DNA of 40,000 nt from Dolichospermum flos-aquae CCAP 1403/13F (GCF_012516395.1 NZ_CP051206.1:4243334-4283333); one strand, 5' to 3'; counted from the stretch's first letter, positions 3,001 through 36,903 are shown. Program-made: numbers and translations. The notes: generated by a model from the sequence alone, not told the origin.

Positions 3001-3231
3001 ACTAATTTAAAACTTTACTATCCTCTGTTTTTGTCAACAGCAGAAGAGCAAAAGATTCAAGTGATTCTCTCCCCCCAATCGGAAAGTAAGATGTTACTGC
3101 AAGTGTATAGCTGTCGCCTCAGTAAATCCTCTTCCACATCAGAGTGGACTTTATACGCAGATGCACAAGTTTCGTCTTCACCAACCTATCCAGAACAAAC
3201 AGATAATTCACGGAGGTTAATAGAAGTATGA
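1..3231 (+). CDS. Type I polyketide synthase subunit: KS-AT-(N-terminal half of DH)
   Basis: 1076-aa ORF beginning at window base 1. KS motifs DTSCSSS (Cys codon 628-630), EAHGTGT, NFGHLEAAAG. AT motifs GHSVGE and HAFH. The C-terminus has HPILG and LKDHQVWDTVIMP (HxxxGxxxxP-type DH His motif). A ~35-aa leader before the KS looks like an inter-subunit docking element. The stop overlaps the next start (ATGA). Confidence 0.9.
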   Translation: MSNTESNQEQTTSLQRLLHALKQARTQIENTERQKTEPIAIIGMGFRFPGGVKDQETFWQLLDQGVDAITEVPSDRWDVERYYDLNPDAPGKIYTRYGGFLEQVDQFDPQFFGIAPREAMDMDPQHRLLLEMTWEAIENAGIAPERLKGTQTGLFVGMSSDDYSQLSLNFEDLNSVEAYRGLGSARSIAVGRLAHILDLQGLTMQLDTSCSSSLLAIHLACQSLRSGESHLAIAGGVNLILSPMNTILGCKLRALSTDGRCKTFDAAADGYVRGEGGGMVLLKRLSEAEADGDNILALIRGSAANHDGKSNGLTAPNGLAQEAVIKQALTNARVKPEQIQYVEAHGTGTPLGDPIEVLALGKVFCQGRSEQEPLIIGSVKTNFGHLEAAAGIASLIKVVLCLQHQQIPPHLHCQNPNPYIPWDQLAIAIPTELTPLSPQDSHLAGISCFGMSGTNVHIIVESPATPVKSEDDPQLHLLTLSGKTEQGLRDLAQSYEEFLNQHPDISIADICFTANTGRSHFDHRLGIIAQSHHHLHRQLEDFRQQTPITSVISGQLTSKKRPKIAFLFTGQGSQYVNMGKELYQTQPVFRQSLDQCAQILSSELEYPLLEILYSQTRENPLINQTACTQPALFALEYALTQLWQSWGIKPDIVMGHSVGEYVAACVAGIFSLEDGLKLITHRGRLMQQLPEDGEMVAVMASGGQVQPIITPYKDQIAIAAYNTANSIVISGAKTAIRDVCNQLESQGIKTKNLQVSHAFHSPLMQPMLAEFATASAQITYKQPQIPLISNLTGKPATADITTGQYWVNHICDPVKFADSVTTLNQLGYKIYLEIGPQPILLGMVNQQESPVVPLTLPSLYPKLPDYQQLLQSLATLYTHGVSVNWPEFHQTDTNRRKVALPTYPFRRERYWINRHLQGKNQVTHSPFSQDQQRHPILGYRLSNVATLPHTYIWETPIDEFYLSWLKDHQVWDTVIMPHTGYLQIAFEATQAAFGQPGNEITNLKLYYPLFLSTAEEQKIQVILSPQSESKMLLQVYSCRLSKSSSTSEWTLYADAQVSSSPTYPEQTDNSRRLIEV
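109..1383 (+). other. KS domain (module 1)
   Basis: EPIAIIGMGFRFPGG ... DTSCSSS ... EAHGTGTPLGDPIE ... KTNFGHLEAAAG ... GTNVHIIVE. The Cys-His-His triad is present. Confidence 0.9.
1687..2580 (+). other. AT domain, malonyl-type (module 1)
   Basis: FLFTGQGSQ, GHSVGE, VSHAFHS. The HAFH motif is associated with malonyl-CoA selection in established AT motif rules. Confidence 0.8.
2800..3180 (+). other. DH domain, N-terminal hot-dog half only
   Basis: HPILGYRL entry motif and DHQVWDTVIMPHTGYLQIAFEA (catalytic His and Pro retained, Gly replaced by Asp). The ORF ends before any YGP or DxxxQ/H motif. Confidence 0.7.
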
Positions 3232-4247
3232 AATTTGGTTTAATGTTCTTTGCCAGCAGTGAAGATGCCCTGGTAGGTGATAAATACAGCCTAGTGATTG
3301 ACAGCGCCCGATTTGCCGATCAGCACGGCTTTAGTAGTATTTGGACACCAGAGCGGCACTTTACTCAATTTGGTAGTTTATACCCCAATCCAGCGGTTTT
3401 GAATGCAGCTTTAGCTAGGGAGACCCAACGGATTCGTTTACAAGCAGGTAGCGTGGTTATGCCTCTGCACCATCCCCTAGAAGTAGCAGAATCATGGTCT
3501 TTAGTAGATAACCTGTCCAATGGACGAGTGGGTATATCTTTAGCGCCGGGTTGGAATCCTGGTGATTTTGCCACCTCTCCAGACAAGTATAGCGATCGCC
3601 ACCAAGCCGTTTTTACCAACTTAGAGATTTTACGCAAACTCTGGCAAGGAGAATCTCTAAAAGTTACCGACGGCAAAGGACAACCCACAGAAGTCCGCAT
3701 TTATCCCACCCCCATACAGCCCCAATTGCCCATTTGGATCACAGCAGCAGGTAATCCCCAAACATACATCAAAGCCGGAGAAGTGGGGGCAAATCTGCTA
3801 ACGCACCTTCTAGATCAAGAGGTGGAAACATTAGGAGAAAAAATCGCCCTCTACCGTCAAGCTAGAGCTAGAAACGGTCATGATCCAGAAGCAGGAATAG
3901 TCTCACTCATGCTGCATACCTTTGTTGGTCAAGATTTTGAGCTAGTCCGTGAACAAGCAAGACTACCTTACTGTAATTACCTCAAAGCCAACATTGGACT
4001 TCTCAAAGGACTAGCCCAAAGTCGAGGTCACGATGTTGATATTAGTACATTGCCTGAGCGAGACTTGAATGATTTTGTTAACTTTTTGTATGATCGCTTT
4101 GCGACATCAAGAGGCTTAATTGGCACTCCTGAGACTTGTCAGAACTTACTAGCACAGTTGGATAGAATTGGTGTTAATGAAGTAGCGTGCTTACTGGATT
4201 TTGGTTTAAGTAAAGAACTGATTCTCCAACAGTTACCTGATCTCAAT
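3228..4247 (+). other. LLM-1: luciferase-like (FMN-type) monooxygenase domain
   Basis: Paralogous to 10378-11430 and 25711-26760. Shared blocks: M.F.L..F, (W)(T/L)PERHF, PNP.V, AGSVV.P.HH/Q, RVAE.W, DN(L/I)S.GRVGIS.A.GW.P.DF, LHTFVG, GTP..C, IGV(N/D)E(V/I)(A/G)CL(L/I)DFG. Confidence 0.85.
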
Positions 4248-6851
4248 CAATTACGAGAAGAGGATCAGGGAATGGGGAACAGGGAACTCTTAACAGGGAA
4301 CAGGAAGCAGGAGTTAGTAACTTCGCACCAGTCCGTTATTCCTGTAGAGTCCCTAGAAACTATTCGTTTGCGTTGTCAAGATCAGAGAAACGCCCGCGAA
4401 TTTTATCAACTACTGCAAGGACATGGGTTACAGTTACAAGCAACCTATCAGGGTATTCAAAATCTGTGGTTAGGTGAACGAGAAGCCTTAGCCCAAATTA
4501 AATTATCAGGTGAGGTAGCCTTTGGTAATGGGTTTCAAGTGCGAGCGGCGGTATTAGATGCCTGTCACCAAGTCTTAGGGGCAACATTACTGGGTAAAAT
4601 CCTATCGGGAGGAATGGAGACTGATACTCAGACTACCCCAGAGAAAATGTCCCTCTATTTACCCACAGGACTCAAGAGTTTTCAAATTTATGAATCTCTA
4701 GGAACGGAAGTTTGGAGTCATGCTGTCCTGCGTCACCATCAAAGCAGTAATTCTAGTGTCGCTGCTCAAGAGATGATAGAAGGAGATATTTATATTTTTA
4801 ATAGTACAGGTAATCTGGTGGTGAAAGTATCTGGTTTGCAGATGCAAAGTACCACGGTTGCAGGTCAATCAACCAGTCAAAAACAGCAAGATCCGAATTT
4901 GTTGTATGAGTTACAATGGCAACCTCAGCCTTGGGTAGAAGTTGCGTCAACCACAACCGAGCCAGGTGTGTGGTTAATATTTGCAGACCAATCTGGAGTT
5001 AGTCAGAATGTAATTGAGTTATTAGAAGCCCAAGGTGATACCTGTTGGATTATTAATCACAGTGAAAACTCCCAGAATCAACCCCAACAGCAAATTGTTG
5101 TGACTCCTGGGGATCAAACCCAGATGCAACAGTTAATGAGTCAGGCTTTAGCGCCAGGACATCCTCTCTGTCGCGGTATACTGCATCTGTGGAGTTTAGA
5201 TGTTACTCCCAGTCAAGCCACCACGTTGCCATCTCTGCAACAGGATCAAACCCTAACTGTCACCAGTTTTTTACATCTAGTGCAAGCAGTTAGCCAAACT
5301 GCTCAGGCTCAAATTCCCCCCATCTGGATTGTGACTCAGGACGTGCAGCAGGTGGGATCAGAAACAACTCCCCGTTCTATTGCTCAAGCTCCGATTTGGG
5401 GTTTAGGACGAGTTGTAGCCACCGAATTGCCCAAGGTGTGGGGAGGATTGGTAGATTTAGATGGAGATAATACACCTGAAGTATCTGCGAAACAATTACT
5501 GCACATATTACAAACAAGCGATCGCGAAGATCAGATTGTTCTCCGTCAAGGACATCCCCATATTCTCCGCCTAGTCAAGAGTCAAAAAACACCAGTTTCA
5601 CCCCAATCTATCCAACTGCAACCAGAAGCTACTTATGCAATTACCGGAGGATTTGGGCATTTTGGACTAGAAAGTGCGAAATGGTTGGCAAAAAAAGGCG
5701 CGAAATCCCTAGCTTTAATCGGCAGACGCACCCCATCCAGTCCAGTCCAGTCCGCCATTAAGGAATTAGAAAAAACTGGAGTTCAAGTCCTGGTTGTTGA
5801 AGCAGATGTGTCCGATGTAACGGGCATGACCGAGGCGATCGCTACCATCCAATCTACCTGTCCACCCTTAAAGGGAATTTTCCACATAGCAGGTTTGAGT
5901 CAACAAAACCTATTGACAAATATCACAACTAATGATATGGATGCCATGTTGCGTCCTAAAGTTTTTGGCACCTGGAACTTACATCAACTCACATTGGATC
6001 TCCATCTCGATTTCTTCTTCAGCACCTCTTCCATGTCTCCCGTATTTGGATCTCAAGGACTAGGACATTATGCTGCGGCTAATTACTTCCTAGATATTTT
6101 TGCCCACTATCGTCACAGTTTAGGACTACCAGCATTAACCGTCAATGTTGGGGCTTTAGCAGGTGGTGGTATGGCTTTAGCTTCACCGGCAGGGGAGAAA
6201 TATACTACCCAAATAGGTTTAAATTTAACTCACCCTAGTGATTTACTAGATGTGGCTGGAGGCTTTTTCTCACAAGCAGATGTAGCGAATATGGTCATTG
6301 CCGATATGGATTGGTCACTATTCAAACCCCTTTATGAAGGGACTACTGGTAAACTGCTTTTAGGACAAATAGAGGCACAAAATAGCGCAACTCAGGCAAA
6401 AATAGGACAACGAGATATCCTTTGGCAACAGTTGGAGACATTACCGGAAAGTGAGCGTTACCAACAAGTAGTGACTCATTTACAACAAGAAGTAGCCAAC
6501 ATCCTCGGTTACTCTGCCAATCAGCCATTGTTTAACCCAGAGGTAGGGTTCTTTGATTTAGGCATGGATTCTTTATTAGCCGTCGCCTTTAAGAATAAGC
6601 TGGAAAATAGCTTAGGTTCTTCTTTGCCAACCGTGTTGATTTTTGAACACCCTAATGTTATTAGTTTAACTGAGTACATCATCACAGAGGTACTTCAGTG
6701 GGAATCTGCAATAGATGATGATAATGTCCAACCAGTGTCACAACCATCAGGCTTGGAAACGGAACTTTCCCAAACAATCCAGGAATTATCCGAACAGACA
6801 TTAGAGGATTTGATTAATCAAAAATTAGCCAGAGCTTTGGAGGATGACTAA
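3228..6851 (+). CDS. PKS subunit: LLM monooxygenase domain-(C-terminal half of DH)-KR-ACP
   Basis: 1207-aa ORF. ATG overlaps the previous stop, with GGAGG at 3211-3215. N-terminus MKFGLMFFAS...FADQHGFSSIWTPERHF...RLQAGSVVMPLHHPLEVAESWSLVDNLSNGRVGISLAPGW is luciferase-like. Then DH-like FYQLLQGHG.../LDACHQVL, KR YAITGGFGHFG...GHYAAAN, and ACP LGMDSLL (Ser codon 6570-6572). Confidence 0.9.
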   Translation: MKFGLMFFASSEDALVGDKYSLVIDSARFADQHGFSSIWTPERHFTQFGSLYPNPAVLNAALARETQRIRLQAGSVVMPLHHPLEVAESWSLVDNLSNGRVGISLAPGWNPGDFATSPDKYSDRHQAVFTNLEILRKLWQGESLKVTDGKGQPTEVRIYPTPIQPQLPIWITAAGNPQTYIKAGEVGANLLTHLLDQEVETLGEKIALYRQARARNGHDPEAGIVSLMLHTFVGQDFELVREQARLPYCNYLKANIGLLKGLAQSRGHDVDISTLPERDLNDFVNFLYDRFATSRGLIGTPETCQNLLAQLDRIGVNEVACLLDFGLSKELILQQLPDLNQLREEDQGMGNRELLTGNRKQELVTSHQSVIPVESLETIRLRCQDQRNAREFYQLLQGHGLQLQATYQGIQNLWLGEREALAQIKLSGEVAFGNGFQVRAAVLDACHQVLGATLLGKILSGGMETDTQTTPEKMSLYLPTGLKSFQIYESLGTEVWSHAVLRHHQSSNSSVAAQEMIEGDIYIFNSTGNLVVKVSGLQMQSTTVAGQSTSQKQQDPNLLYELQWQPQPWVEVASTTTEPGVWLIFADQSGVSQNVIELLEAQGDTCWIINHSENSQNQPQQQIVVTPGDQTQMQQLMSQALAPGHPLCRGILHLWSLDVTPSQATTLPSLQQDQTLTVTSFLHLVQAVSQTAQAQIPPIWIVTQDVQQVGSETTPRSIAQAPIWGLGRVVATELPKVWGGLVDLDGDNTPEVSAKQLLHILQTSDREDQIVLRQGHPHILRLVKSQKTPVSPQSIQLQPEATYAITGGFGHFGLESAKWLAKKGAKSLALIGRRTPSSPVQSAIKELEKTGVQVLVVEADVSDVTGMTEAIATIQSTCPPLKGIFHIAGLSQQNLLTNITTNDMDAMLRPKVFGTWNLHQLTLDLHLDFFFSTSSMSPVFGSQGLGHYAAANYFLDIFAHYRHSLGLPALTVNVGALAGGGMALASPAGEKYTTQIGLNLTHPSDLLDVAGGFFSQADVANMVIADMDWSLFKPLYEGTTGKLLLGQIEAQNSATQAKIGQRDILWQQLETLPESERYQQVVTHLQQEVANILGYSANQPLFNPEVGFFDLGMDSLLAVAFKNKLENSLGSSLPTVLIFEHPNVISLTEYIITEVLQWESAIDDDNVQPVSQPSGLETELSQTIQELSEQTLEDLINQKLARALEDD
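4254..4313 (+). repeat. In-frame GGGAACA-type short repeat block forming the LLM-to-DH linker
   Basis: ggaatggggaacagggaactcttaacagggaacaggaagcagga, translated as EDQGMGNRELLTGNRKQE. It resembles the intergenic heptamer repeats elsewhere in the window. Confidence 0.6.
4335..4862 (+). other. DH domain, C-terminal hot-dog half (degenerate YGP motif)
   Basis: EFYQLLQGHGLQLQATYQGIQNLW (at the position of the Y..YGP.F motif), AAVLDACHQVL (DxxxQ/H motif), LYLPTGLKSFQIY, GDIYIFNSTGNLVVKVSGLQMQ. Confidence 0.6.
4959..6347 (+). other. KR domain (module 1), catalytic Tyr present
   Basis: GVWLIFADQSG structural subdomain, WGLGRV, YAITGGFGHFG Rossmann motif, RPKVFGTWNL, SSMSPVFGSQGLGHYAAAN (Tyr codon 6069-6071). 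No LDD motif (HIAGLSQQNLL). Confidence 0.8.
6450..6692 (+). other. ACP domain (module 1)
   Basis: VVTHLQQEVANILG...FFDLGMDSLLAVAFKNKLE...LIFEHPNVISLTEYI. Followed by an acidic helical C-terminal tail (docking-like). Confidence 0.85.
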
Positions 6852-9800
6852 AATGACTGCTGTTACCGATAACGTTAAAAATCTGTCCTCTTTACAACGG
6901 TCTGTTTTACTCATCGAAAAACTGGAATCTCAAGTTAATCGGCTGAAGTATGCTAAAACAGAACCAATTGCCATTATTGGTATGTCCTGTCGGTTTCCAG
7001 GAAGCGCAAATGATCCTCAAGCCTTTTGGGAAATCCTGAAATCAGGTACAGACGCGGTAACAGAAATCCCTTCCCAACGCTGGAATATTGCTGACTACTA
7101 TGACGAAAATCCCCAGACTCCTGGCAAAATATATACTAAATCAGGGGGATTTTTACCAGAAGTAGACAAATTTGATCCCCAATTTTTTGGCATTTCCTCC
7201 CGTGAAGCCGTAAGTATTGACCCCCAACATCGGTTACTTTTGGAAGTAACTTGGGAAGCCTTAGAAAATGCCGGACATATCCCCCAACGGAATCAGGGTA
7301 GTTCCACAGGGGTTTTTGTCGGTATCACCCTGAATGATTATGGTTCTATTGCTAAACAATCACATTCAGATGTTAGTGTAGAGGCCTATGGAGTCACGGG
7401 ATCACCTTCCTATGCGGCAGCAGGACGGATTTCCTATACCTTCGGGTTTACAGGCCCTTGTATGGCTATTGATACCGCTTGTTCATCTTCCCTGGTAGCG
7501 ATTCATCAAGGGTGTCAAAGTTTACGACAACAAGAATGTCAAATGGCTGTAGTGGGGGGAGTAAATTTGATTTTGCTTCCTGACAGTATGATTGCGACTT
7601 CCAAAGCAAATATGTTGTCTAGCGATGGTCGTTGTAAAACCTTTGATGCTAGTGCTGATGGGATTGGTCGTGGTGAAGGATGCGGGATTTTAGTGATCAA
7701 ACGTCTATCTGATGCAGAAGCTAATGGTGACAAAATTCTGGCAGTAATTCGCGGTTCAGCAGTTAATCAGGATGGTCCTAGCAGTGGGTTGACAGTTCCC
7801 AATGGCAATTCCCAGCAACAGGTGATGCTTCAGGCTTTGAAGATGGCTAAGATAGAAGCGGCTGAGGTAAGTTATGTGGAGGCACATGGTACGGGTACAC
7901 CTCTAGGAGATCCGATTGAGTTGCGATCGCTTGCCAAAATTTACGCTGCTCATCATTCCCAGGATAACCCCTTATTTATCGGTTCGGCTAAAACCAATAT
8001 CAGCCATGTGGAAACTGCTGCTGGGGTAGCAGGAGTAATCAAAGTTATTCTCCAATTACAGCATCAACAAATTGCCCCCCATTTGCACCTAAAAACTCCC
8101 ACAACACACTTCAATTGGCAGGATTTTTCGGTTATAGTCCCTACTAAAATTACCCCCTGGTCTGTCCAATCTGGCAGTCGCATTGGAGTGGTAAACTCTT
8201 TTGGAGCAACAGGAACTAATGCTCATATTATTTTAGCAGAAGCACCTCCACAATTAAAACCTGCCCATTCTTCCCTAGAGAGACCCCTACATTTATTAAC
8301 TCTTTCTGCTAAAACAGAACCAGCATTAAAGGATTTGGTGAAGCGTTATCAGTCTTGGTTAGATATCAATGCCGATTTAAAAATTGCGGATATCTGCTAC
8401 AGTGCGAATACAGGTCGCGGTCATTTCAAGCATCGTTTAGCATTACTTGTTTCTGAAACTCAAGAACTAGCTACAAAACTGGAGAATTTGACCTCACCAC
8501 AGGAACAGATGACAGGAGTATTGCATGGGCAATTATCATCGAATGGTGGTAATCCTAAAGTTGCTTTTTTGTTTACAGGCCAGGGTTCTCAATATGTTGA
8601 TATGGGTCGGGAACTCTATGAAACCCAACCTTTATTTCGTAAGATTATAGAACAGTGTGACACCATTGTGCGATCGCACTTAGAAAAATCACTATTAGAA
8701 ATTCTCTATCCTCAAAATCCCCACGAGTCGGAAACTTCTTTCCTTGATCAAACAAATTATACTCAACCTGCCTTATTTGCCTTAGAATATGCCCTAGCTC
8801 AATTGTGGATCTCCTGGGGCATCAAGCCTAACGCCGTCATGGGGCATAGTGTAGGGGAATATGTGGCAGCTTGTATAGCCGGAGTATTCAGCCTGGAAGA
8901 TGGGTTAAAATTGATTGCCACCCGCGCTCGCTTGATGCAATCTTTACCTGATAATGGGGAAATGTTAGCGGTATTTGCGGATAAAGATCGAGTGATGCAA
9001 GCGATCGCCTCCCATGAAGATAAAGTAGCGATCGCCGCCTATAATGGTTTAGAAAATATCGTCATTTCCGGTGAAAAACAAGCAATTGCAGCAATTAAAA
9101 CCAAGCTGGAAAATGCGGGAATAGATAGCCGCCCCCTCAACACCTCCCATGCCTTTCACTCACCCCTAGTAGACCCCATTCTCAACCAATTAGCACAAGC
9201 TGCTAATCAGATCAAAATCCATCCTCCCCGTATCCCTATCATTAGCAATTTAACGGGACAGACCCTATCAGCAGGTCAACGCTTAGATGGGCAGTATTGG
9301 CAACAGCATAGCCGAGAAGCCGTGAAATTTACGGACGGGTTGAGAACATTAGTAGAACAGGGTTATGAAACTTTTTTAGAAATTGGACCAAAACCGATTT
9401 TATCGAAATTGGGAAATAGGTGTCAATTGGGGGATAACCTATTGTGGCTTCCTTCCCTGGTAACAGGACAACCAGCCCATTCGATATTATTGAATAGTCT
9501 CGCCGAATTATATGTGCGTGGTGCAGACGTAAATTGGTCAGGATTTGACGAAAATTACCCCTTTCAACGGCTGATTTTACCCAATTATCCCTTTCAACGT
9601 CAGCGTTACTGGTTTGAAACACCAGCTTTAGAGAATCGGGAGCAGGAGGTAGGGGTTATTAAATCCGTACCTGCGGTTTTACAAGCAGATACCGCACTCT
9701 CTTCACAACGAGTACAAATTCTTAAAAGCTTGCAATTTCTCATTGGTCAAGCGTTGCAAATTTCCCCAGATGAAGTAGATATTCAGATTCCCTTGGTAGA

Positions 9801-12800
9801 AATGGGGGCTGATTCTATCGTTTTCATGGAAACAGGTCAGAAGTTAGAAACCACTTTTGGGGTGAGAATTCCCATTCGCAAATTATTTGAAGACCTATCT
9901 ACCTTAAATGCGTTAGGTACTTATATTAACGAACATCTTCCCGCAGGATTTGTATTTACTCCACCTGCACAAAATAATAGTCAAGAGGTGGTATTAGCAG
10001 CAGAAGCAACTACCCCCAATGTCGAAACAAAGAAAAATGAATCTTTATCAGCTAATTCATCTCCACAAACTCCAGCACTTGAGCAAATTGGTACTAATGC
10101 CATAGAACGGATTATGAGCCAGCAGTTACAGGCCATGTCTGATCTCATGTCCCAACAATTAGCAGTCCTCCGGGGAGAAACAACATTATCACAAACACAA
10201 CAACATATTTCCCATCTTGTTTCCCCACCTGAAAATTCCCCTGTTAACTTTGCACAAACGGGAACTAAGAACTCTAAACGCCAAGAATTTTGGGAACGAC
10301 GGGAATTTAAACCCAGATTAAGTGAACTAGAAAAATCCGCTGCTGATTTTCCCATAAATGTTCCAGCTAATAAAGAAATGCAATTCAGTCTTTATTATTT
10401 CGGCAGTTATGACGCAGAATTTGCCAGCGATAAATATAGCCTTCTCTTTGCTGGAGTCAAATATGCAGACGAGAATGGCTTTACATCTGTGTGGCTACCA
10501 GAACGCCACTTTCACGCCTTTGGCGGTTTTTCCCCTAATCCCTCAGTTCTTTGTGCTGCCCTAGCTAAAGTCACCAGCCAAATTCATCTACGGGCAGGTA
10601 GTGTGGTATTACCTATCCATCATCCTGTACGCGTCGCCGAAGATTGGGCAATTATAGACAACATTTCCCAAGGACGGGTGGGAATTTCCTTCGCTTCCGG
10701 TTGGCATCCCCATGACTTTATATTTGCCCCTCAAGACTATGACGACCGCCGGGAAATTATGTTCGAGGGCATAGAAACAGTCCAAAAACTGTGGCGAGGA
10801 GAATCAATTCAATTGCCCAGTGGGTCTGGTAAACTAGCAGAAATTCGCACATTTCCCATGCCCCAACAACAGGAATTACCTGCTTGGGTGACAATAGTTA
10901 ATAACCCAGATACTTATATTCGAGCCGGGGCAATGGGAATAGGAGTTTTGACCAACCTTATGGGTCAAACTGTAGATGATTTAGCCCGCAATATTGCCCT
11001 CTATCGGGAATCTCTAGCACTTCATGGTTATGATGCCAGCGTTGGTCAAGTTACAGTGTTACTACATACCTTTGTCGGCACTGATCTTCAACAGGTACAA
11101 GAACAAGCTCGTCAACCATTTCAGGATTATCTCACCTCATCTATTGGTCTTTTTCAAGCCTTAGTGAAAAGTCAAGGTTTGGAAGTGGCAGATTTTGAAA
11201 AGATGACAGAGGATGACAAAGACTATATTCTGTCAGCAGCATATCAACGTTATATTCAAACCAGCGCCTTGATTGGGACACCAGATTCTTGTATTGAGAT
11301 TGTGGAAAAACTCCTAGCAATTGGTGTTGATGAAATTGCCTGTTTAATTGACTTTGGGGTGGAAGAAGCCGCTGTATTAGCAAATTTACCTCACTTAAAA
11401 ACTTTAAAAGAACGGATAAATCAACTAAAAACGGCTGATTGGCTTTATACCCTGGATTGGCAACAACAGCCCTGTGATGTTTCTGCACTTTCACCCGCAG
11501 AACCTGGACATTGGTTAATTTTTGCTGATAAACAAGGTGTGGGAAATGCTTTAGCAAATCAACTTCGTTCCCATGATCAAACCTGTGCGCTAATTTATCC
11601 TCAAGGTAGTGACACAACTTTACCTAAATCAGATTTGGAGCTTAATCCTACTGACCCAACGGCTTTTAATCAGCTTCTACAAAATCAAATTGCAGCTAGT
11701 GAACTTCCTCTCCAGGGAATTATTCATCTTTGGAGTCTCGACAGTCCATTATCTGACCAATTGACAGTTGATTTACTCCATCAATCTCAACAAATGGTCT
11801 GTGCTAGTGTGCTGCATTTGGTTCAAGCAGTAGATCAACATCCTGACTTAAAAAATGCTTGTCCACAACTGTGGTTAATCACCCAACAAGCAATTATGGC
11901 GGAAAACAATGCGCCAACTGGAATCGCTCAATCATCACTATGGGGTTTAGGTCGTGTAGTGACTATAGAACATCCAGAAATGTGGGGTGGTTTAATTGAT
12001 ATTGATGCTCAAAGAACGGCTTTTGAAGTTTCCCAGCAGCTATGGTTAGAAATCAGAGCGCAGCAAGGGAAGGGAGAACAAGCGGAAGATCAGGTTTTGC
12101 TACATCAAGAAAAACGTTATGTTGCCCGTCTAGCCCGTCATAGCGTCAGTAATGCTGATATTGTCCCTGTGAACTTGGGCTTAGAAGGAACTTATTTGAT
12201 TACTGGTGGACTGGGTGCATTGGGGATTCGGTTGGCAAAATGGTTAGTTGACCAAGGGATAGGTCATTTAGTCCTCTGTGGGCGTTCTGTCCCCTCTGCT
12301 AAGATTCAAACCCAGATTAGACAGTTGCAGCAACAGGGTATACAGGTGATGGTGGCTCAGTTAGATGTGTCTAATTCTGCTGATTTATCCGCGTTATTAC
12401 GAAAAGTACAAGAACGAACTAAAGACAATTGGCCGCAGCTTCAGGGCATTTTTCACTTGGCTGGGTTGTTAGATGATGGTGTATTATTTCAGCAGACCTG
12501 GGAACGCTTTGAGACGGTATTTAATCCTAAAGTTTTAGGAACTTGGAATCTTCATATTTTAACCCAAGACTTGCCAATCAAACACTTTGTGCTGTTCTCT
12601 TCCATTGCTTCCTTATTGGGTTCTCCTGGACAAAGTAATCATGCGGCTGCAAATGCTTTTATAGATGCTTTGGCTCATCTTCGTCGAGCTAAGGATTTGC
12701 CAGCAGTGAGTATAAATTGGGGATCTTGGACAGAAATCGGTAAAGTTACCCGATTAGAAGGAGCGCAGAAACAACGCTGGCAAGAGTATTTTGATAAACT

Positions 12801-15800
12801 TTGGCGCAGTTATGGTATGGAAGCGATCGCTCCCAGAGAGGGTTTTCACGCCCTGGGACAACTGTTAAATCAACCTCCTGTGCAAGTTGGGGTATTTCCC
12901 ATTGATTGGCCGAAGTTTTGTCAATCCCTCAATGTGCAACACAAGCCTCTATTGTTGAACTTAACGCAGCCACAAACACCCTCTGCTCATTTGAGAATAC
13001 CCTTAAGTGAAGCCCAAAAGCAACTATGGCTATTGTCGGAAATTGTTAGGGAGGGGTCTATTGTCTATAACGATAATGTCAACTTAGAATTACGTGGTGA
13101 TTTACAAGTAGAGATTTTAAAACAGTCAATCCAGACTGTGATTCAACGGCATGAATCACTGCGGACTGTGATTGACCCCCAAGGAGAATGGCAAGAAATT
13201 CTGCCTACCCTAGTCATAGAAATCCCCCTGATTGACCTCTCCAGTGTCCAGGGTGAACAGGATGATAAATTGCGGGATTGGTTGGTTAAACGTAGCCAAA
13301 AACCCCTGAATTTAGTCAAAGATCCTTTATTGCAAGTGGAAGTATTGAAACTGGAACAACAGCGTCATGTTCTAGTGATTACCATTCATCACATTATTTC
13401 TGATGGTTGGTCTGTGGAAAATATTCTCAAAGAAATTGCACAGATATATTCTGATTTAAGCAACGGTTCAGCAGTTACCCTAGATAGTCCCCTCCAATTT
13501 CGGGAATTTCTCAACTGGCAAAACAACCGCAGCCAAACTGAAGAAATGCTCAATCATGAGTCCTTTTGGCTAGAACAGTTTGCTAATTCTATACCAGTTT
13601 TAGAACTACCCACAGACCGCACTCGTCCCCTAAGTAAAACCTATCATGGTCATCGCCAAACTAGGGAGACTGATCCTAGTTTACGTGAACAATTACGACG
13701 GTTAAGCCAGGGTCAAGGATGTACCCTATTTATGACCTTGCTGGCGGCTCATTTCGTATTTTTGCATCGTCTCAGCAGACAGGAAGAAATAGTGCTGGGG
13801 ATTCCCACATCTGGGCGTTTTCTCTCTGGTGGTGAAACAATGGTCGGATACGCAACGCACCTATTACCTATCCGTAGTTGTTTCCAAGAGGATTTGACTT
13901 TTCTGGCTTATTTGGCGGAAATTCGCAGGACATTATTGACGGCTTATGAACATCAGGATTATCCCTTTTCCCAATTATTAAAGCGGCTGAATCTTAAATC
14001 TGATCACAGTCGTACACCTTTGGTATCTGTGACGTTTAACTTGCAGCCACCAGTACCCACTACTCAATTGAGGGATTTGCAGACAACTTTGGTAGAGCGG
14101 CCTGTGAGCTTTACTCACTTTGATCTGCATTTTATCGTTATTGATATGGGCGATCGCTTAATATTAGAGGCAAAATACAATACAGATTTGTTTAATGATG
14201 CCACTATTGAGCGTTGGCTAGATCATTTCCACACTTTATTACAGGAAATTATTGCCCAGCCAAATCAGTCTGTGGCGACTGTACCATTGTTGACTCACCA
14301 GCAGCGTCAGCAGTTGTTGGTTGGGTGGAATCCTCCTGCATCAAAGTTAGAACAGGATTGCATTCATCACCGTTTTCAGGTACAGGTTGATCAGACTCCT
14401 GATGCCATCGCTGTGGTCTGTGAAGAGGAGAAGTTAACGTATTATGAGTTAAATGCCCGGTCAAATCAACTCGCTTGTTTGCTTGGTGGTGAGATCAGAT
14501 ATGATTTAATGAACCACGAAGGCACGAAGGTCACGAAGGAGGAGGGGAAGAAGGAGGAGGGGAAAATTGACGGTTTTCCTGTTAGGTCTGGTGATCTAGT
14601 GGTGCTTTATGTTGGCCGCTCTGTTGTGTGTTTAGTTGGTATATTGGGAATATGGAAGGCGGGAGGTGTTTATGTGCTGTTGGATGCCTCTACTACACCT
14701 CCTCACCGTCTAGCGTTACTGCTTGCAGATATTCAACCGGCAGTGCTGTTAACTCAAGCCGAATACAGCGCCAATCTACCTGATTCTCTCTCATGCCCTG
14801 TGGTATTGCTGGACAGGGAATTGAGTACCAGTTCTGAAAATAGTCCCTGTCTAGTAAAATCTGATGATCTGGCATACATCATTTTTACATCCGGTTCAAC
14901 GGGTCAGCCCAAGGGGGTAGCTATTGAACATGGCAATCTCGCTGCTTATACTACAAGTATTATTGAATGTCTCGACTTGCAACCCGGTCGGAGTTTTGCT
15001 ACGGTTTCCACTTTTGCGGCCGATTTGGGTTATACCGCCATTTTTCCCACACTTTGTACTGGTGGTGTCCTGCACATTATTACACAGGAAACTTCTACTG
15101 ATCCTCGGTCTTTAGCCGCATACTTTAGCCAACATCAAATTGATTACCTGAAGATTGTTCCTGCTCACCTCAACGCTCTATTAGATGGTGAACAATCGCT
15201 ACAGGTATTACCGCGACATACTCTGATTTTGGGTGGAGATACTCTTGCTTGGGATTTAGCCCAAAAGATGCAAAATTTAGCACCTCAATGCCGGATTTTC
15301 AATCACTATGGACCGAGTGAAACAACAGTAGGAGTTTTAACTTTCTGCGTTCCTCAAGACCAGCAGCAGTTAGAATATCTATCTAAGACAGTTCCTTTAG
15401 GTCGTCCCCTTCCCCATGCCCAGGTTTATATTTTAGATCAGTATCAGCAACCTGTCCCCATTGGTGTACCTGGGGAAATTTATATTGGGGGTGCAAGTGT
15501 AGGTTCAGGATACTTTAATCGCCCGGAATTAACGGCGGCAAAGTTTGTCTCTCATCCCTATTCACATACCCCCGACTCTGAGCGGTTATACAAAACTGGA
15601 GATTTAGCTCGTTATCTGCCAGATGGTAATATTGAGTTCTTAGGAAGAATTGATAATCAAGTAAAAATACGGGGATTTAGAATTGAGTTGGGTGAGGTAG
15701 AATCTATCCTCAGTCAACATCCAGGGGTACAACAAGTAGTTGTCTTGGTAGAGGAAGAACGTCTCATAGCTTACTGGGTGGCGGTGCAAATAGTAGGTGT

Positions 15801-18800
15801 TAATGTTCCTTCTGCTCAGGAATTGCGCCAGTATTTGCAAGGGCAATTACCTGATTATATGATACCGAGTTTCTTGATCAACTTGGAGGGTATTCCCTTA
15901 ACAGCGAACGGGAAAGTAAATCGTCAGGCTTTGCCTCTGCCAGCACAGGATTTGAGCCAAGTAGCCGATTTTATTGCCCCGCGTACTCCTACGGAACAAG
16001 CGATCGCAGATATATTTACTACTGTTTTACGGTTGGAGTCCATAGGTATTGACAACAACTTTTTTGAGCTAGGGGGACACTCCCTGTTAGCTACTCAGGT
16101 AATCTCTCGCTTGCGGGAAACTTTCCAAATTAACCTCCCCTTGGTTAGCTTATTTGCAGCACCTACGGTGGCTGGAATTGACTCAATTATTCATCAGCAG
16201 TTGCAACAGGGTTTAGGAAAACTTGCCCCACCTATTCAGGCTGTAGAGCGGACTCCTGATCTAGAATTACCCCTAAGCTGGTCTCAAGAACGACTGTGGT
16301 TTATTGACCAACTGGAAGAGGCTAATGCAACCTATAATATGCCAGCGGCAGTTCGTCTTCAGGGTAATCTCCACGTTCCAGCTTTAGAACGGGCTTTGGC
16401 GGAAATTGTTCAACGCCATGAAGTGCTAAGAACGGGCTTTCAAACTAGAGATGGTCAAGCTGTACAAGTTATCTCACCGGCAGCTAGGCTAACTTTACCG
16501 ACAATTGATTTACAGTCTTTGTCCGTTGATCAACAGCAAATTAGTGTTCAAAAACACATCCTTGAGGCAGCGCAAACTCCTTTTAATTTGTCTCAACCTC
16601 CCTTGATGCGGGCTACCTTATTACTGATTAGTCCTAAAGAATATGTGTTATTAATTACAATGCACCATATTGTTTCTGATGGTTGGTCAGTGGGTGTTGT
16701 CGTGGGAGAATTATCCACTCTCTATCAAGCTTTTAGCCAAAACCGCATTTCTCCATTGACAAACCTGAATATTCAATATGCAGATTTTGCGATTTGGCAA
16801 CGTCAATGGTTGACAGGTGAGGTATTACAAACCCAACTCAGCTATTGGCAAACTCAGTTAGGGGGTAATTTACCAATTCTCAATCTTCCCCTGGATTATG
16901 GCTTATCTGCGGGACAAGATCATCGGGGTGTGGGGGAACATCTATCCATAGAGCGATCGCTTACTCAATCTTTAAAAGCACTCAGTGATCAAGAAGGGGT
17001 AACTTTATTTATGACCCTGTTCGCAGCTTTTAATGTGCTTTTGTCTCGTCACACAGGGCAAGAAGATATCATTGTCGGTTCACCCATAGCCGGTCGTCAT
17101 CATTTTGGTTGTGAAGATTTGGTCGGCTTCTTTATCAACACCTTGCCTCTTCGCACTAATTTAGCCGACAATCCCAACTTCCGACAATTATTAAAGCGGG
17201 TTCGGGAAGTAACACTAGGGGCTTATACCCATCAAGATATTCCCTTGGAAAAGTTGGTGGAAGAATTACGTCCAGAACGAGTCTTAAATCGCCATCCTTT
17301 GTTTGATGTGCTTTTTAACTTTGTGAACACCCCAGAGGCAGTTCTGGACTTGGGAGATTTGACCTTTGAACGGTTAACCCAACCCGAACCTTATGCTAAA
17401 TTCTGGCTAACCTTTTATATTCGTCAAGTTGGTGAAGCCTTAAATGTGGAACTGGTCTATCGTCAGGGTTTATTTGCCCCGTCACGGATGACCGCTTTAC
17501 TGGAGCAGTTTGTCTTTTTATTAACACAAGTGGTTGATCATCCTGATCAGAAGATTCAATCCTATTCCCTCTTATCTCCTCAATCTGCGGCTTTATTGCC
17601 TGATCCTGCCATGCCCTTGGTAGAGCCAGACTATGAGCTTGTATCCACATCATTTATCAACTGGGCAAAACAAACCCCTGCACAAATAGCAATTTGTCAA
17701 CATGGGCGAAATTGGACCTATGGAGAATTGGCGACAGTCTCCCGAAAAATAGCCCAAATGCTGATTCATCATGGATTACAGCCAAAGGATGCAGTCGCAT
17801 TGTCAGGCGATCGCAGTTTCGGTGTAATTGCTAGTATTTTGGGTATCCTTTTGAGTGGAGGCGTGCTAGTAATTATTGATCCCCACCTACCACCACAGCG
17901 TCAAAACCTGATGCTTGAGCAAACCCAAGCTCGTTATGTAATTACCATTGGTAATCCCTCAACAGTGTGGGAAAAGGAACTGAAAATCATCGCCATAGAT
18001 CCTCATACTGGGGCAATTGGGGAAGAAATGGCTACTGATGATATCCCCTTACCTGCCCTTGCACCCAATGATCCAGCCTACATCTTTTTTACCTCTGGTA
18101 GCACGGGAACGCCTAAAGGAGTATTGGGAACGCACAAAGGTATTGCCCATTTTATCCATTGGCAACGTCACACCTTTGAGATTACACCGAGCGATCGCAT
18201 TGCCCAACTAATTGGACTGGCCTTTGATGCCATTCTCAGAGATATTTTTCTCCCCTTAACCAGTGGTGCAACCCTTTGTTTACCAGATCCAGACTACATT
18301 CCCGGCTCACCTCAGATTTTGTCTTGGCTAGAAACAGAAAAAATCTCCCTATTTCATACCGTTCCCGCAGTTGCCCAATCTTGGTTACAACAAATTCCCG
18401 AAACAATCACATTAAGTTCATTGCGGTGGGTATTCTTTTCTGGAGAACCATTAACTCATTCCCTCGTTCAAAAATGGCGGCAAAACTTTCCAGCAGCCGG
18501 AAATATTGTTAATCTTTATGGTGCTACCGAAACCACAATGGTGAAGTGCTTTTATCAAGTACCTCCAGAAATTTCCGTGGGAGTTCTCCCTGGAGGTTGG
18601 CCTTTACCTGACACTCAAATTCTGATTTTCAATACTCAAAACCAACTTTGTGGTATTGGTGAAATTGGGCAAATTGTCGTGCGAACACCATTTCGGACAT
18701 TGGGGTACATTAACCCAATTCCCTCGCCATTTGTACTCAATCCATTTCGTCAAGATATGCAGGATTTGCTGTACTATACAGGCGATAATGGACGCTATCG

Positions 18801-19530
18801 TTCTGATGGGGCAATTGAAATTTTAGGCCGTTTAGATCATCAAATTAAAATTCGAGGAGTTCGTGTTCAACCAGGAGAAATTGAAGCCATTTTAAACCAA
18901 CATCCAGCAGTCGGAGAAGGTGTAGTCATTGCTAAACAAAAAACCTCTGGAGAGGATGATATTGTTGCTTACATAGTTGTTAAATCAGGACAATCTGTAA
19001 CTACTCAAGAGATCCGAAAGTTTCTCAAAAACCAACTACCAGAATATATGATTCCGTTGTTTTTTGTAGAGTTAGACAGTCTACCTCTAACGGCAACAGG
19101 TAAAGTAAATCGTCAATTACTACCCGAACCTAATTATAGTCCAAATCAGGCTTCTGAGCGGCGAGAACCTCGAACACCCATGGAAATTAAAGTAGTGGCA
19201 ATCATTTGCCAAATTCTTGATTTGCAACAAATTAGTATTGATGATAATTTCTTTGCATTGGGAGGACATTCCTTATTAGCTGCTCAAGTTATTTCTCGAT
19301 TGCAAAAAGAGTTTCAGGTCAATATTCCTCTCAAATCCTTATTTGAGATGCCTACTGCGGCTGAACTTGCTACTTTAATTGAAAAGCTGCAATTAGAAAC
19401 AACTGGTGAATCTATAATTCCCAAAATCACCAAAATATCTCGAAAACGTCATCAAGCCAAAGTATCTTCTGAAGGTAAATTGGCACTATCTGAGGAATTA
19501 AAAGACGAAAATTTCAAGCCTAATCAATAG
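6844..19530 (+). CDS. Hybrid PKS-NRPS: KS-AT-ACP-LLM-KR(Tyr->His)-C-A-PCP-C-A-PCP
   Basis: 4228-aa ORF. ATG 6844 overlaps the previous stop and directly abuts GGAGG (6839-6843). The second in-frame ATG at 6853 has better RBS spacing and may be the true start. Domain motifs are listed in the domain features. Confidence 0.9.
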   Translation: MTKMTAVTDNVKNLSSLQRSVLLIEKLESQVNRLKYAKTEPIAIIGMSCRFPGSANDPQAFWEILKSGTDAVTEIPSQRWNIADYYDENPQTPGKIYTKSGGFLPEVDKFDPQFFGISSREAVSIDPQHRLLLEVTWEALENAGHIPQRNQGSSTGVFVGITLNDYGSIAKQSHSDVSVEAYGVTGSPSYAAAGRISYTFGFTGPCMAIDTACSSSLVAIHQGCQSLRQQECQMAVVGGVNLILLPDSMIATSKANMLSSDGRCKTFDASADGIGRGEGCGILVIKRLSDAEANGDKILAVIRGSAVNQDGPSSGLTVPNGNSQQQVMLQALKMAKIEAAEVSYVEAHGTGTPLGDPIELRSLAKIYAAHHSQDNPLFIGSAKTNISHVETAAGVAGVIKVILQLQHQQIAPHLHLKTPTTHFNWQDFSVIVPTKITPWSVQSGSRIGVVNSFGATGTNAHIILAEAPPQLKPAHSSLERPLHLLTLSAKTEPALKDLVKRYQSWLDINADLKIADICYSANTGRGHFKHRLALLVSETQELATKLENLTSPQEQMTGVLHGQLSSNGGNPKVAFLFTGQGSQYVDMGRELYETQPLFRKIIEQCDTIVRSHLEKSLLEILYPQNPHESETSFLDQTNYTQPALFALEYALAQLWISWGIKPNAVMGHSVGEYVAACIAGVFSLEDGLKLIATRARLMQSLPDNGEMLAVFADKDRVMQAIASHEDKVAIAAYNGLENIVISGEKQAIAAIKTKLENAGIDSRPLNTSHAFHSPLVDPILNQLAQAANQIKIHPPRIPIISNLTGQTLSAGQRLDGQYWQQHSREAVKFTDGLRTLVEQGYETFLEIGPKPILSKLGNRCQLGDNLLWLPSLVTGQPAHSILLNSLAELYVRGADVNWSGFDENYPFQRLILPNYPFQRQRYWFETPALENREQEVGVIKSVPAVLQADTALSSQRVQILKSLQFLIGQALQISPDEVDIQIPLVEMGADSIVFMETGQKLETTFGVRIPIRKLFEDLSTLNALGTYINEHLPAGFVFTPPAQNNSQEVVLAAEATTPNVETKKNESLSANSSPQTPALEQIGTNAIERIMSQQLQAMSDLMSQQLAVLRGETTLSQTQQHISHLVSPPENSPVNFAQTGTKNSKRQEFWERREFKPRLSELEKSAADFPINVPANKEMQFSLYYFGSYDAEFASDKYSLLFAGVKYADENGFTSVWLPERHFHAFGGFSPNPSVLCAALAKVTSQIHLRAGSVVLPIHHPVRVAEDWAIIDNISQGRVGISFASGWHPHDFIFAPQDYDDRREIMFEGIETVQKLWRGESIQLPSGSGKLAEIRTFPMPQQQELPAWVTIVNNPDTYIRAGAMGIGVLTNLMGQTVDDLARNIALYRESLALHGYDASVGQVTVLLHTFVGTDLQQVQEQARQPFQDYLTSSIGLFQALVKSQGLEVADFEKMTEDDKDYILSAAYQRYIQTSALIGTPDSCIEIVEKLLAIGVDEIACLIDFGVEEAAVLANLPHLKTLKERINQLKTADWLYTLDWQQQPCDVSALSPAEPGHWLIFADKQGVGNALANQLRSHDQTCALIYPQGSDTTLPKSDLELNPTDPTAFNQLLQNQIAASELPLQGIIHLWSLDSPLSDQLTVDLLHQSQQMVCASVLHLVQAVDQHPDLKNACPQLWLITQQAIMAENNAPTGIAQSSLWGLGRVVTIEHPEMWGGLIDIDAQRTAFEVSQQLWLEIRAQQGKGEQAEDQVLLHQEKRYVARLARHSVSNADIVPVNLGLEGTYLITGGLGALGIRLAKWLVDQGIGHLVLCGRSVPSAKIQTQIRQLQQQGIQVMVAQLDVSNSADLSALLRKVQERTKDNWPQLQGIFHLAGLLDDGVLFQQTWERFETVFNPKVLGTWNLHILTQDLPIKHFVLFSSIASLLGSPGQSNHAAANAFIDALAHLRRAKDLPAVSINWGSWTEIGKVTRLEGAQKQRWQEYFDKLWRSYGMEAIAPREGFHALGQLLNQPPVQVGVFPIDWPKFCQSLNVQHKPLLLNLTQPQTPSAHLRIPLSEAQKQLWLLSEIVREGSIVYNDNVNLELRGDLQVEILKQSIQTVIQRHESLRTVIDPQGEWQEILPTLVIEIPLIDLSSVQGEQDDKLRDWLVKRSQKPLNLVKDPLLQVEVLKLEQQRHVLVITIHHIISDGWSVENILKEIAQIYSDLSNGSAVTLDSPLQFREFLNWQNNRSQTEEMLNHESFWLEQFANSIPVLELPTDRTRPLSKTYHGHRQTRETDPSLREQLRRLSQGQGCTLFMTLLAAHFVFLHRLSRQEEIVLGIPTSGRFLSGGETMVGYATHLLPIRSCFQEDLTFLAYLAEIRRTLLTAYEHQDYPFSQLLKRLNLKSDHSRTPLVSVTFNLQPPVPTTQLRDLQTTLVERPVSFTHFDLHFIVIDMGDRLILEAKYNTDLFNDATIERWLDHFHTLLQEIIAQPNQSVATVPLLTHQQRQQLLVGWNPPASKLEQDCIHHRFQVQVDQTPDAIAVVCEEEKLTYYELNARSNQLACLLGGEIRYDLMNHEGTKVTKEEGKKEEGKIDGFPVRSGDLVVLYVGRSVVCLVGILGIWKAGGVYVLLDASTTPPHRLALLLADIQPAVLLTQAEYSANLPDSLSCPVVLLDRELSTSSENSPCLVKSDDLAYIIFTSGSTGQPKGVAIEHGNLAAYTTSIIECLDLQPGRSFATVSTFAADLGYTAIFPTLCTGGVLHIITQETSTDPRSLAAYFSQHQIDYLKIVPAHLNALLDGEQSLQVLPRHTLILGGDTLAWDLAQKMQNLAPQCRIFNHYGPSETTVGVLTFCVPQDQQQLEYLSKTVPLGRPLPHAQVYILDQYQQPVPIGVPGEIYIGGASVGSGYFNRPELTAAKFVSHPYSHTPDSERLYKTGDLARYLPDGNIEFLGRIDNQVKIRGFRIELGEVESILSQHPGVQQVVVLVEEERLIAYWVAVQIVGVNVPSAQELRQYLQGQLPDYMIPSFLINLEGIPLTANGKVNRQALPLPAQDLSQVADFIAPRTPTEQAIADIFTTVLRLESIGIDNNFFELGGHSLLATQVISRLRETFQINLPLVSLFAAPTVAGIDSIIHQQLQQGLGKLAPPIQAVERTPDLELPLSWSQERLWFIDQLEEANATYNMPAAVRLQGNLHVPALERALAEIVQRHEVLRTGFQTRDGQAVQVISPAARLTLPTIDLQSLSVDQQQISVQKHILEAAQTPFNLSQPPLMRATLLLISPKEYVLLITMHHIVSDGWSVGVVVGELSTLYQAFSQNRISPLTNLNIQYADFAIWQRQWLTGEVLQTQLSYWQTQLGGNLPILNLPLDYGLSAGQDHRGVGEHLSIERSLTQSLKALSDQEGVTLFMTLFAAFNVLLSRHTGQEDIIVGSPIAGRHHFGCEDLVGFFINTLPLRTNLADNPNFRQLLKRVREVTLGAYTHQDIPLEKLVEELRPERVLNRHPLFDVLFNFVNTPEAVLDLGDLTFERLTQPEPYAKFWLTFYIRQVGEALNVELVYRQGLFAPSRMTALLEQFVFLLTQVVDHPDQKIQSYSLLSPQSAALLPDPAMPLVEPDYELVSTSFINWAKQTPAQIAICQHGRNWTYGELATVSRKIAQMLIHHGLQPKDAVALSGDRSFGVIASILGILLSGGVLVIIDPHLPPQRQNLMLEQTQARYVITIGNPSTVWEKELKIIAIDPHTGAIGEEMATDDIPLPALAPNDPAYIFFTSGSTGTPKGVLGTHKGIAHFIHWQRHTFEITPSDRIAQLIGLAFDAILRDIFLPLTSGATLCLPDPDYIPGSPQILSWLETEKISLFHTVPAVAQSWLQQIPETITLSSLRWVFFSGEPLTHSLVQKWRQNFPAAGNIVNLYGATETTMVKCFYQVPPEISVGVLPGGWPLPDTQILIFNTQNQLCGIGEIGQIVVRTPFRTLGYINPIPSPFVLNPFRQDMQDLLYYTGDNGRYRSDGAIEILGRLDHQIKIRGVRVQPGEIEAILNQHPAVGEGVVIAKQKTSGEDDIVAYIVVKSGQSVTTQEIRKFLKNQLPEYMIPLFFVELDSLPLTATGKVNRQLLPEPNYSPNQASERREPRTPMEIKVVAIICQILDLQQISIDDNFFALGGHSLLAAQVISRLQKEFQVNIPLKSLFEMPTAAELATLIEKLQLETTGESIIPKITKISRKRHQAKVSSEGKLALSEELKDENFKPNQ
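6961..8245 (+). other. KS domain (module 2)
   Basis: EPIAIIGMSCRFPG, DTACSSS (Cys codon 7480-7482), EAHGTGTPLGDPIE, KTNISHVETAAG, GTNAHIILAE. Confidence 0.9.
8557..9460 (+). other. AT domain, malonyl-type (module 2)
   Basis: VAFLFTGQGSQ, GHSVGE (Ser codon 8848-8850), TSHAFHS. Confidence 0.8.
9700..9938 (+). other. ACP domain placed directly after AT (module 2)
   Basis: ILKSLQFLIGQALQISPDEVDIQIPLVEMGADSIVFMETGQKLETTFGVRIPIRKLFEDLSTLNALGTYI. Ser codon 9814-9816. This is the only carrier domain between the AT and the first C domain. Confidence 0.8.
10378..11430 (+). other. LLM-2: luciferase-like monooxygenase domain between ACP and KR
   Basis: MQFSLYYFGSYD...YADENGFTSVWLPERHFHAFGGFSPNPSV...RAGSVVLPIHHPVRVAEDWAIIDNISQGRVGISFASGWHPHDF...LHTFVG...IGVDEIACLIDFG. 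Confidence 0.85.
11434..12920 (+). other. KR domain (module 2) with catalytic Tyr replaced by His
   Basis: GHWLIFADKQG, WGLGRV, YLITGGLGALG, LDD motif (HLAGLLDDG), NPKVLGTWNL, SSIASLLGSPGQSNHAAAN. The codon at the canonical YAAAN Tyr position is CAT (12640-12642). Confidence 0.75.
12997..14290 (+). other. C domain 1 (acyl-acceptor, PKS/NRPS interface)
   Basis: IPLSEAQKQLWLL, RHESLRTVI, HHIISDGWS (13387-13413). It follows the KR directly with no intervening carrier domain. Confidence 0.85.
14365..15940 (+). other. A domain 1, hand-extracted code DLTKIGHVGK (Asp-like)
   Basis: LTYYELN, IIFTSGSTGQPKGV, FAADLGYT, NHYGPSETTV, GEIYIGG, YKTGDLARY, KIRGFRIELGE, NGKVNR. The code was aligned by eye to GrsA-PheA positions 235-331. 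From memory, the canonical Asp code is DLTKVGHIGK. Confidence 0.65.
14491..14580 (+). repeat. In-frame repeat-derived ~30-codon insertion between A-domain cores A1 and A2
   Basis: cacgaagg occurs three times (14515-14539) and gaaggaggaggggaa twice (14536-14565). Translated as EIRYDLMNHEGTKVTKEEGKKEEGKIDGFP. The equivalent segments of the other A domains in the window are about 28 aa shorter. Confidence 0.75.
15975..16200 (+). other. PCP domain 1
   Basis: FFELGGHSLLATQVISRL, Ser codon 16081-16083. Confidence 0.9.
16267..17590 (+). other. C domain 2
   Basis: LPLSWSQERLWFIDQLE, RHEVLRTGF, MHHIVSDGWS, IQYADFAIWQR. Confidence 0.85.
17640..19130 (+). other. A domain 2, hand-extracted code DARHFSLMVK (DxRH class)
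   Basis: WTYGEL, IFFTSGSTGTPKGVLGTH, LAFDAILRD, FHTVPA, NLYGATETT, YYTGDNGRY, KIRGVRVQPGE, TGKVNR. Arg at position 239 and His at 278 are the pair I recall from the microcystin iso-linked MeAsp/Glu modules (McyB2 DARHVGIFVK, McyE DPRHSGVVGK). Confidence 0.5.
19165..19390 (+). other. PCP domain 2
   Basis: FFALGGHSLLAAQVISRL, Ser codon 19270-19272. Confidence 0.9.
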
Positions 19531-19531
19531 G

Positions 19532-19548
19532 ATTGGTAATTGGTAATC
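19532..19548. repeat. TTGGTAA heptamer (STRR-like) in the NRPS-racemase spacer
   Basis: attggtaattggtaatc. It contains the TTG used as the ORF-track start of the racemase ORF. Confidence 0.5.
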
Positions 19549-19569
19549 AACTTAGTAAATAAGGATGAA

Positions 19570-36863: not shown

Positions 36864-36903
36864 TTATAGTAATTAATTTTAGAACCAACAAGGAAGGGTG
36901 CAA

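Follow-up and report, generated by a model that had tools for sequence, protein, structure and literature searches.

Does a polyketide synthase (PKS) ketoreductase (KR) whose catalytic tyrosine is replaced by histidine still reduce its substrate, and can it do so in a module whose only carrier domain stands ahead of the tailoring domains? These questions are raised by a PKS/nonribosomal peptide synthetase (NRPS) cluster of the cyanobacterium Dolichospermum flos-aquae CCAP 1403/13F, which lies on the + strand of a 40,000-nucleotide stretch of the genome (NZ_CP051206.1:4243334-4283333; ~42% G+C), hereafter the window. The KR belongs to ORF3 (open reading frame 3; 6844-19530, + strand), a protein of 4228 amino acids (aa) with the order ketosynthase (KS), acyltransferase (AT), acyl carrier protein (ACP), luciferase-like monooxygenase (LLM), KR and condensation domain (C), followed by adenylation (A), thiolation (T), C, A and T domains. 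An initial annotation had suggested that the KR may be redox-inactive and structural, leaving a beta-keto intermediate. On sequence evidence and analogy, we instead consider a working module, in which an active His-type KR makes a 2,3-diol that is passed to Asp, to be the most probable account, with a probability of roughly 0.65.

Pfam and locally built hidden Markov models (HMMs) place the KS at aa 40-419 (6961-8100), the AT at aa 573-855 (8560-9408), the ACP at aa 967-1028 (9742-9927), the LLM (LLM-2) at aa 1196-1500, the catalytic half of the KR at aa 1782-1966 and a C domain with the motif HHIISDG at aa 2052-2488 (12997-14307), adjoining the KR. The ACP is the sole carrier of the PKS module, and its motif VEMGADSIV (aa 985-993), with attachment residue Ser991 in EMGADSI (TCT, 9814-9816), is kept in eight homologues. 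No carrier was found between the KR and the C domain even at E<=0.01 (local HMMs, permissive thresholds), and the same holds for every homologous protein examined. The initial annotation had read this layout, with a lone carrier directly after the AT and a C domain after the tailoring domains, and had placed the Ser codon, the His codon and the C start; all of this is borne out. The KS-AT-ACP-LLM-KR-C order was also seen in eight related loci from cyanobacterial genomes and metagenomes. According to a domain search, the LLM and KR share one module and one ACP, as in CcsC-type modules, and the combinations ACP-LLM-C (P0119) and KS-AT-ACP-LLM (P0103) also occur among relatives. Judged from its domains, the ACP-first LLM-KR-C module is one more combination within a modular family, a new domain order following known logic; no description of this layout was found in the literature searched. 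A search for a pyridoxal phosphate (PLP)-dependent aminotransferase (AMT) after the ACP gave no PF00202 match in the module, and the interval between ACP and LLM matched no family.

That interval (9928-10377) is a variable, polar, low-complexity linker of ~150 aa. It had been described as a Gln/Ser-rich linker of ~145 aa; the linker stands, but the strong Gln/Ser richness does not (E 10%, S 10%, A 9%, Q 9%). A helix within it (IERIMSQQLQAMSDLMSQQLAVL; aa 1087-1109, 10102-10170) is amphipathic, and its consensus, ALERIMSQQLQxMSxLMSxQLAVL, is the sole conserved island of the ACP-LLM linker and occurs in all five homologues. Similar helices are found in P0103 and P0042, and the element may serve in dimerisation or docking.

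The KR (11461-12963; catalytic half 12187-12741) is a two-subdomain type I PKS domain matching PF08659 with 213 bits. Within GQSNHAAAN (12628-12654), His1933 (CAT, 12640-12642) occupies the column of the catalytic Tyr of YxxxN. A phmmer search against the PDB matched query residues 115-494 to EryKR1 (2fr0; E 5e-52) and set His1933 opposite that enzyme's catalytic Tyr, gap-free and with the highest posterior; no alternative Tyr lies nearby in that alignment, which confirms the replacement noted in the initial annotation. An AlphaFold model (pLDDT 87.5, pTM 0.90) shows a two-subdomain fold with 2fr0 as its best PDB match (TM 0.73/0.80) and places the His (query residue 394) at the start of a helix (392-410); the residue-level placement of His1933 rests on the sequence alignment, while the model supports the fold.

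The remainder of the active site is intact, as had also been claimed. The NADPH motif ITGGLGALG (aa 1786-1794; Gly in 231 of 233 homologues) is identical in the window and three orthologues, as are K1896 (in NPKVLG), S1919/S1920 and N1937, which align with the corresponding EryKR1 residues. LLDD at aa 1875-1878, 55-58 residues before His1933, marks the domain as B-type (D-hydroxyl), and the LDD is likewise unchanged in the three orthologues. Neither the degenerate NADPH site nor the loss of Asn that would be expected of a C-type KR is seen, and His in the Tyr column of an otherwise intact active site places the domain in a His-type, HMWP1-like subgroup (GQxNHAAAN). The KR of the previous module (ORF2, 3228-6851) reads GLGHYAAAN and so retains its Tyr, in agreement with the initial annotation.

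The His is not an error, since CAT is kept in Cylindrospermum FACHB-282, Scytonema hofmanni UTEX 2349 and Calothrix anomala FACHB-343 (73-74% identity; orthologues were found by genome and metagenome scans) amid flanking codons that differ synonymously. Conservation of the replacement in orthologous clusters, a check proposed with the initial annotation, thus holds in all three, whereas four homologues of the same KS-AT-ACP-LLM-KR-C layout, from Aetokthonos hydrillicola and three metagenome contigs (49-54% identity), carry Tyr in GQSNYGAAN. Within one architecture, then, a single T/C transition switches the residue between Tyr and His. In a tree of 341 KRs the two residues are interspersed, with ~26 parsimony changes. 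The ratio of nonsynonymous to synonymous substitution rates (dN/dS) is 0.08-0.15 in the catalytic half of the KR, compared with 0.08-0.18 in the C1, AT and A domains and 0.2-0.35 in linkers, a level equal to that of catalytic domains and one that argues against an inactive KR.

LLM-2 (10378-11412) belongs to the MupA/Atu3671 family of FMN-dependent monooxygenases (TIGR04020, 517.8 bits against a cut-off of 244.45, model positions 1-341), a membership consistent with the alpha-hydroxylation considered in the initial annotation. Its sequence shares 51% identity with the LLM of CcsC (BAU16015, our P0077), whose module of monooxygenase (Ox), C-methyltransferase (C-MT), KR and ACP (Ox-cMT-KR-ACP) provides cyanochelin B with its 2,3-dihydroxy-2-methyl acyl unit (PMC12628792). 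This similarity makes a 2,3-dihydroxyacyl product likely for the window module, and a beta-keto intermediate need not be invoked, since the LLM and KR of CcsC give a 2,3-diol.

In the proposed scheme, the KS and AT would build a beta-ketoacyl chain on the lone ACP at Ser991, and LLM-2 would use FMN to hydroxylate the activated alpha-carbon (C-2) of the beta-ketoacyl-ACP. The KR, with His1933 as proton donor beside the Lys, Ser, Asn and NADPH site, would then reduce the C-3 keto group in the B-type sense, and the C domain fused to it would move the 2,3-dihydroxyacyl chain from the upstream ACP onto Asp. The next A domain (A1; together with T1, 14371-16197) has the code DLTKIGHVG, read by hand against GrsA numbering, which corresponds to Asp and agrees with the transfer to Asp put forward earlier. 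We infer from analogy in which order the LLM and KR act, that His serves as the general acid and that the product is a diol.

Whether a His-type KR can be active was addressed through its occurrence elsewhere. Among the ~230 nearest KR homologues His is present in 9-11 (218 of 233 have Tyr), and an exact-motif scan of one genome per species returned at least 120 His-type loci from many phyla. Among the loci listed, His-KRs with a visible module start share their module with a dehydratase (DH) in 53 of 59 cases and with an enoylreductase (ER) in 37 of 59, compared with 64 and 8, respectively, of 78 control KRs with Tyr (TAY for CAY); domain calls in both sets rest on HMMs built for this analysis. 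Because DH and ER domains need a reduced beta-carbon, this placement in reductive loops argues for active His-KRs.

The secondary alcohol of yersiniabactin is made by the KR of HMWP1. In E. coli Nissle 1917 this protein (intact, 3163 aa) reads GAPGQSAHALAC and LILYSSAAATLGAPGQSAHALAC, its His aligning gap-free to His1933, and the HMWP1 region is present in 2266 E. coli genomes. The domain has been described as the NAD(P)H-dependent KR of the yersiniabactin line (PMC9547227). A review remarks in passing that the KR Tyr is 'sometimes replaced by histidine' (PMC7327777); in a full-text search this was the only mention of His-type KRs, and papers on KR motifs did not refer to them.

A further feature of the His-KR modules is the company of a C-MT, present in 52 of 59 (mostly as KS-AT-DH-MT-ER-KR-ACP) versus 1 of 78 modules with GQxNYAAANAF (loci L008-L127 versus L132-L250, among those listed). 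HMWP1 (KS-AT-MT-KR) fits this pattern; the window module, which lacks an MT and has an LLM, does not, and is the single LLM case among the 59 His modules. No published description of such a link was found, and it may be functional, reflecting alpha-substituted substrates, or purely phylogenetic. Attempts to attach names to individual His-type loci were set aside: the MT-KR-ACP locus of Chrysosporum bergii (L009) was dropped as cylindrospermopsin CyrB, no such name occurring among its homologues; P0254 of Moorena producens JHB lies in a multi-module reducing PKS without assignment that was not recognisable as the jamaicamide cluster; and P0253, labelled 'McyG' by JGI, had an uninformative context and is not used as evidence.

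Triad-based rules for annotating KRs commonly require Ser, Tyr and Asn. If His-for-Tyr KRs formed a functional subclass for alpha-substituted beta-keto substrates (mostly C-methyl, alpha-hydroxyl here), with the window clade an independent and recent TAT to CAT switch in an LLM context, such rules would systematically mis-score its members as inactive; we put this subclass forward tentatively and regard it as somewhat doubtful.

Several observations weigh against an active His-type KR in the window. A strict HxxxGxxxxP motif was found upstream in only 41 of 61 cases, we infer rather than observe KR activity from the presence of DH and ER, and the His and Tyr scans sample different taxa. The HMWP1 KR is distant and reads HALAC rather than HAAAN. 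All 104 KRs of the LLM-DH-(MT-)KR-ACP family have Tyr, so alpha-hydroxylated substrates do not require His. Finally, a KR kept merely as a scaffold between the ACP, LLM and C domain would also show some purifying selection.

Of the other explanations, the one that survives best leaves the KR competent and shifts its role to that of a gatekeeper for alpha-substituted substrates, an epimerase-like domain or a reductase of another carbonyl, the His reflecting altered chemistry. The tie of His-KRs to alpha-carbon-modifying modules points in this direction, with a C-MT as the partner of the KR in HMWP1 and an alpha-hydroxylase in the window. However, the C-MT association may be phylogenetic, as the samples come from different taxa, and Tyr is found both in LLM-containing KRs elsewhere and in the sister clade of the same layout; a shifted role is therefore unlikely. 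Least probable is the original proposal that Tyr-to-His abolishes ketoreduction, so that the LLM acts on a persisting beta-keto group beside a structural KR and a 2-hydroxy-3-oxo or rearranged acyl chain passes to Asp: four orthologues lack the canonical proton donor, Y-to-F mutants of PKS KRs are inactive (PMC7327777) and the KR would be physically needed as a bridge from LLM to C, but C-type KRs typically lose the NADPH site or the Asn (PMC7327777, PMC11228615), both intact and conserved here, His-type KRs abound in DH/ER loops, HMWP1 has His at the same position, the review's remark allows for it, sister clusters carry Tyr, and in P0119 and P0110 the LLM is fused straight to C, so that no spacer KR is required.

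An active His-type KR that would complete a 2,3-diol is thus the reading we retain. By itself the module opens no long-standing question, an ordinary 2,3-dihydroxy acyl unit being most likely rather than new chemistry. If the reading is correct, the product would be a lipopeptide with vicinal diols in its acyl head: a pair of consecutive LLM and KR modules could give up to a 2,3,4,5-tetrahydroxy chain on Asp, followed by one further residue, beta-hydroxy-Tyr and a terminal amide. Such a polyhydroxy lipopeptide would be plausible as a metal-binding or protease-targeting scaffold; no cyanobacterial compound matching the predicted product was found in a literature search. For annotation, finding His where a KR normally has its Tyr is no ground for calling the domain inactive, and the tailoring domains of carrier-first modules can include a KR and not only an aminotransferase.

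The first of these two LLM and KR modules is encoded upstream, by ORF1 and ORF2 (both + strand; Pfam). ORF1 (1-3231), cut at the window start, encodes a KS, an AT and the N-terminal half of a DH-like double hotdog, and ORF2 (3228-6851), of the CcsC family, encodes LLM-1 (TIGR04020, 479 bits), the DH-like C-terminal half, the Tyr-type KR (YAAAN at aa 948) and an ACP; many LLM-DH-KR-ACP proteins are found among the ORF2 homologues. LLM-1 sits between the two halves of the hotdog (2800-4900), and the gene is split at that place, the ORFs overlapping by ATGA at 3228-3231. The end of ORF1 is a PKS_DH_N domain with HQVWDTVIMP, that is, HxxxDxxxxP instead of HxxxGxxxxP, and ORF2 continues from the LLM into a PS-DH domain (DACHQ) and then KR-ACP; unsplit DH_N-LLM-DH_C-KR-ACP chains occur among the homologues (e.g. 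P0004 and P0006). By analogy with CcsC, in which the beta-hydroxyl survives, this split DH is probably not dehydrating.

Downstream of the PKS module, two A domains of ORF3 stand out. A1 contains an in-frame insertion of ~28 aa (GGEIRYDLMNHEGTKVTKEEGKKEEGKIDGF; ~14479-14580) that is absent from all four homologues and is made of purine-rich short tandem repeats (CACGAAGG three times, AGGAGG-type); a surface loop has probably undergone recent repeat expansion here. A2 (aa ~3780-3900; region of 18500-18540) has the unusual code DARHFSLMV and LYGATE instead of YGPTE, and no substrate could be assigned. Among species-representative genomes, none carries a protein closer to ORF3 than ~74%.

ORF3 is followed on the same strand by an Asp/Glu racemase (19540-20328; PF01177), a probable source of D-Asp, and by an NRPS gene (20392-28719) encoding C, A (Tyr-type code DASTIAAVC), T, C, A (Gly-type), T and thioesterase (TE) domains. 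In the last module (C-A-T-TE) a third monooxygenase, LLM-3 (25711-26670), is inserted between the FDxS region and the remainder of the Gly-type A domain (code ..QMGMIW), the layout of MtaG/MelG; LLM-1, LLM-2 and LLM-3 all pass TIGR04020. MtaG/MelG-type modules turn a sacrificial glycine into a terminal amide, and an amide on a beta-hydroxy-Tyr-type residue is accordingly predicted for the end of the product. The biosynthetic ORFs found in the window end with a CmlA-like diiron beta-hydroxylase (28742-30337, + strand; PF18456), and its exact protein turned up nowhere but on short contigs from three Logan assemblies (SRR32266736-38). A family search of the window ORFs found no PKS/NRPS domains downstream of it; this region encodes a PP2C-like protein, a Band 7 protein, a glutamine amidotransferase-like protein and a large ORF without a family match. 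A 1014-aa ORF with a GTG start (36898-39942), in a stretch of 30-35% G+C, has no Pfam match at E<=0.001.

Compared with known systems, the window KR resembles C-type KRs such as PikKR3 and DEBS KR3 in departing from the canonical Ser-Tyr-Asn triad, but those have lost the NADPH site and/or the Asn (PMC7327777, PMC11228615), whereas GGLGALG, Lys, Ser and Asn are all retained in the window. The KR of HMWP1 (Irp1; KS-AT-MT-KR-ACP) is closer in kind, with His at the short-chain dehydrogenase/reductase (SDR) Tyr position, the Lys and Ser-Ser kept and an alpha-substituted beta-ketoacyl-ACP as substrate in a siderophore PKS/NRPS hybrid; it differs in its weak similarity (55 bits over the catalytic half), its HALAC motif, its partner, a C-MT rather than an LLM, and its canonically placed ACP. 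CcsC of Leptolyngbya sp. NIES-3755 shares with the window a MupA/Atu3671-type LLM and a KR (35% identical) acting on one beta-ketoacyl-ACP. In CcsC, however, the ACP comes last, as is canonical, a DH-like region and a C-MT separate LLM from KR, and the KR has Tyr, while in the window the ACP precedes the LLM and KR, and the KR continues directly into a C domain. The LLM-KR-ACP modules P0018 and P0116 differ from the window in the placement of the ACP, which in the window module has moved to the front.

The layout itself has its nearest counterpart in the KS-AT-ACP-AMT-Ox-C modules of the puwainaphycin, nostophycin and tychonamide type, kin of iturin/mycosubtilin MycA and microcystin McyE; the likeness to the iturin/mycosubtilin type had been recognised in the initial annotation. 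In these modules, too, the carrier comes right after the AT, tailoring domains follow, and a C domain closes the module without a second carrier; the pairing of an aminotransferase with a monooxygenase has been described (PMC4219810, PMC13252402). The nearest relatives of LLM-2 (59-68% identity) belong to such ACP-AMT-LLM-C proteins, of the 2-hydroxy-3-amino acid type and in one case labelled 'iturin family lipopeptide synthetase A', and the ACP (43%) and the C domain following the LLM (44-47%) are also similar. In contrast, those modules carry a PLP aminotransferase between ACP and LLM, and their LLM abuts the C domain, whereas the window module has the 150-aa linker in place of the aminotransferase and a full KR between LLM and C, and its beta-position is therefore predicted to bear a hydroxyl rather than an amino group.

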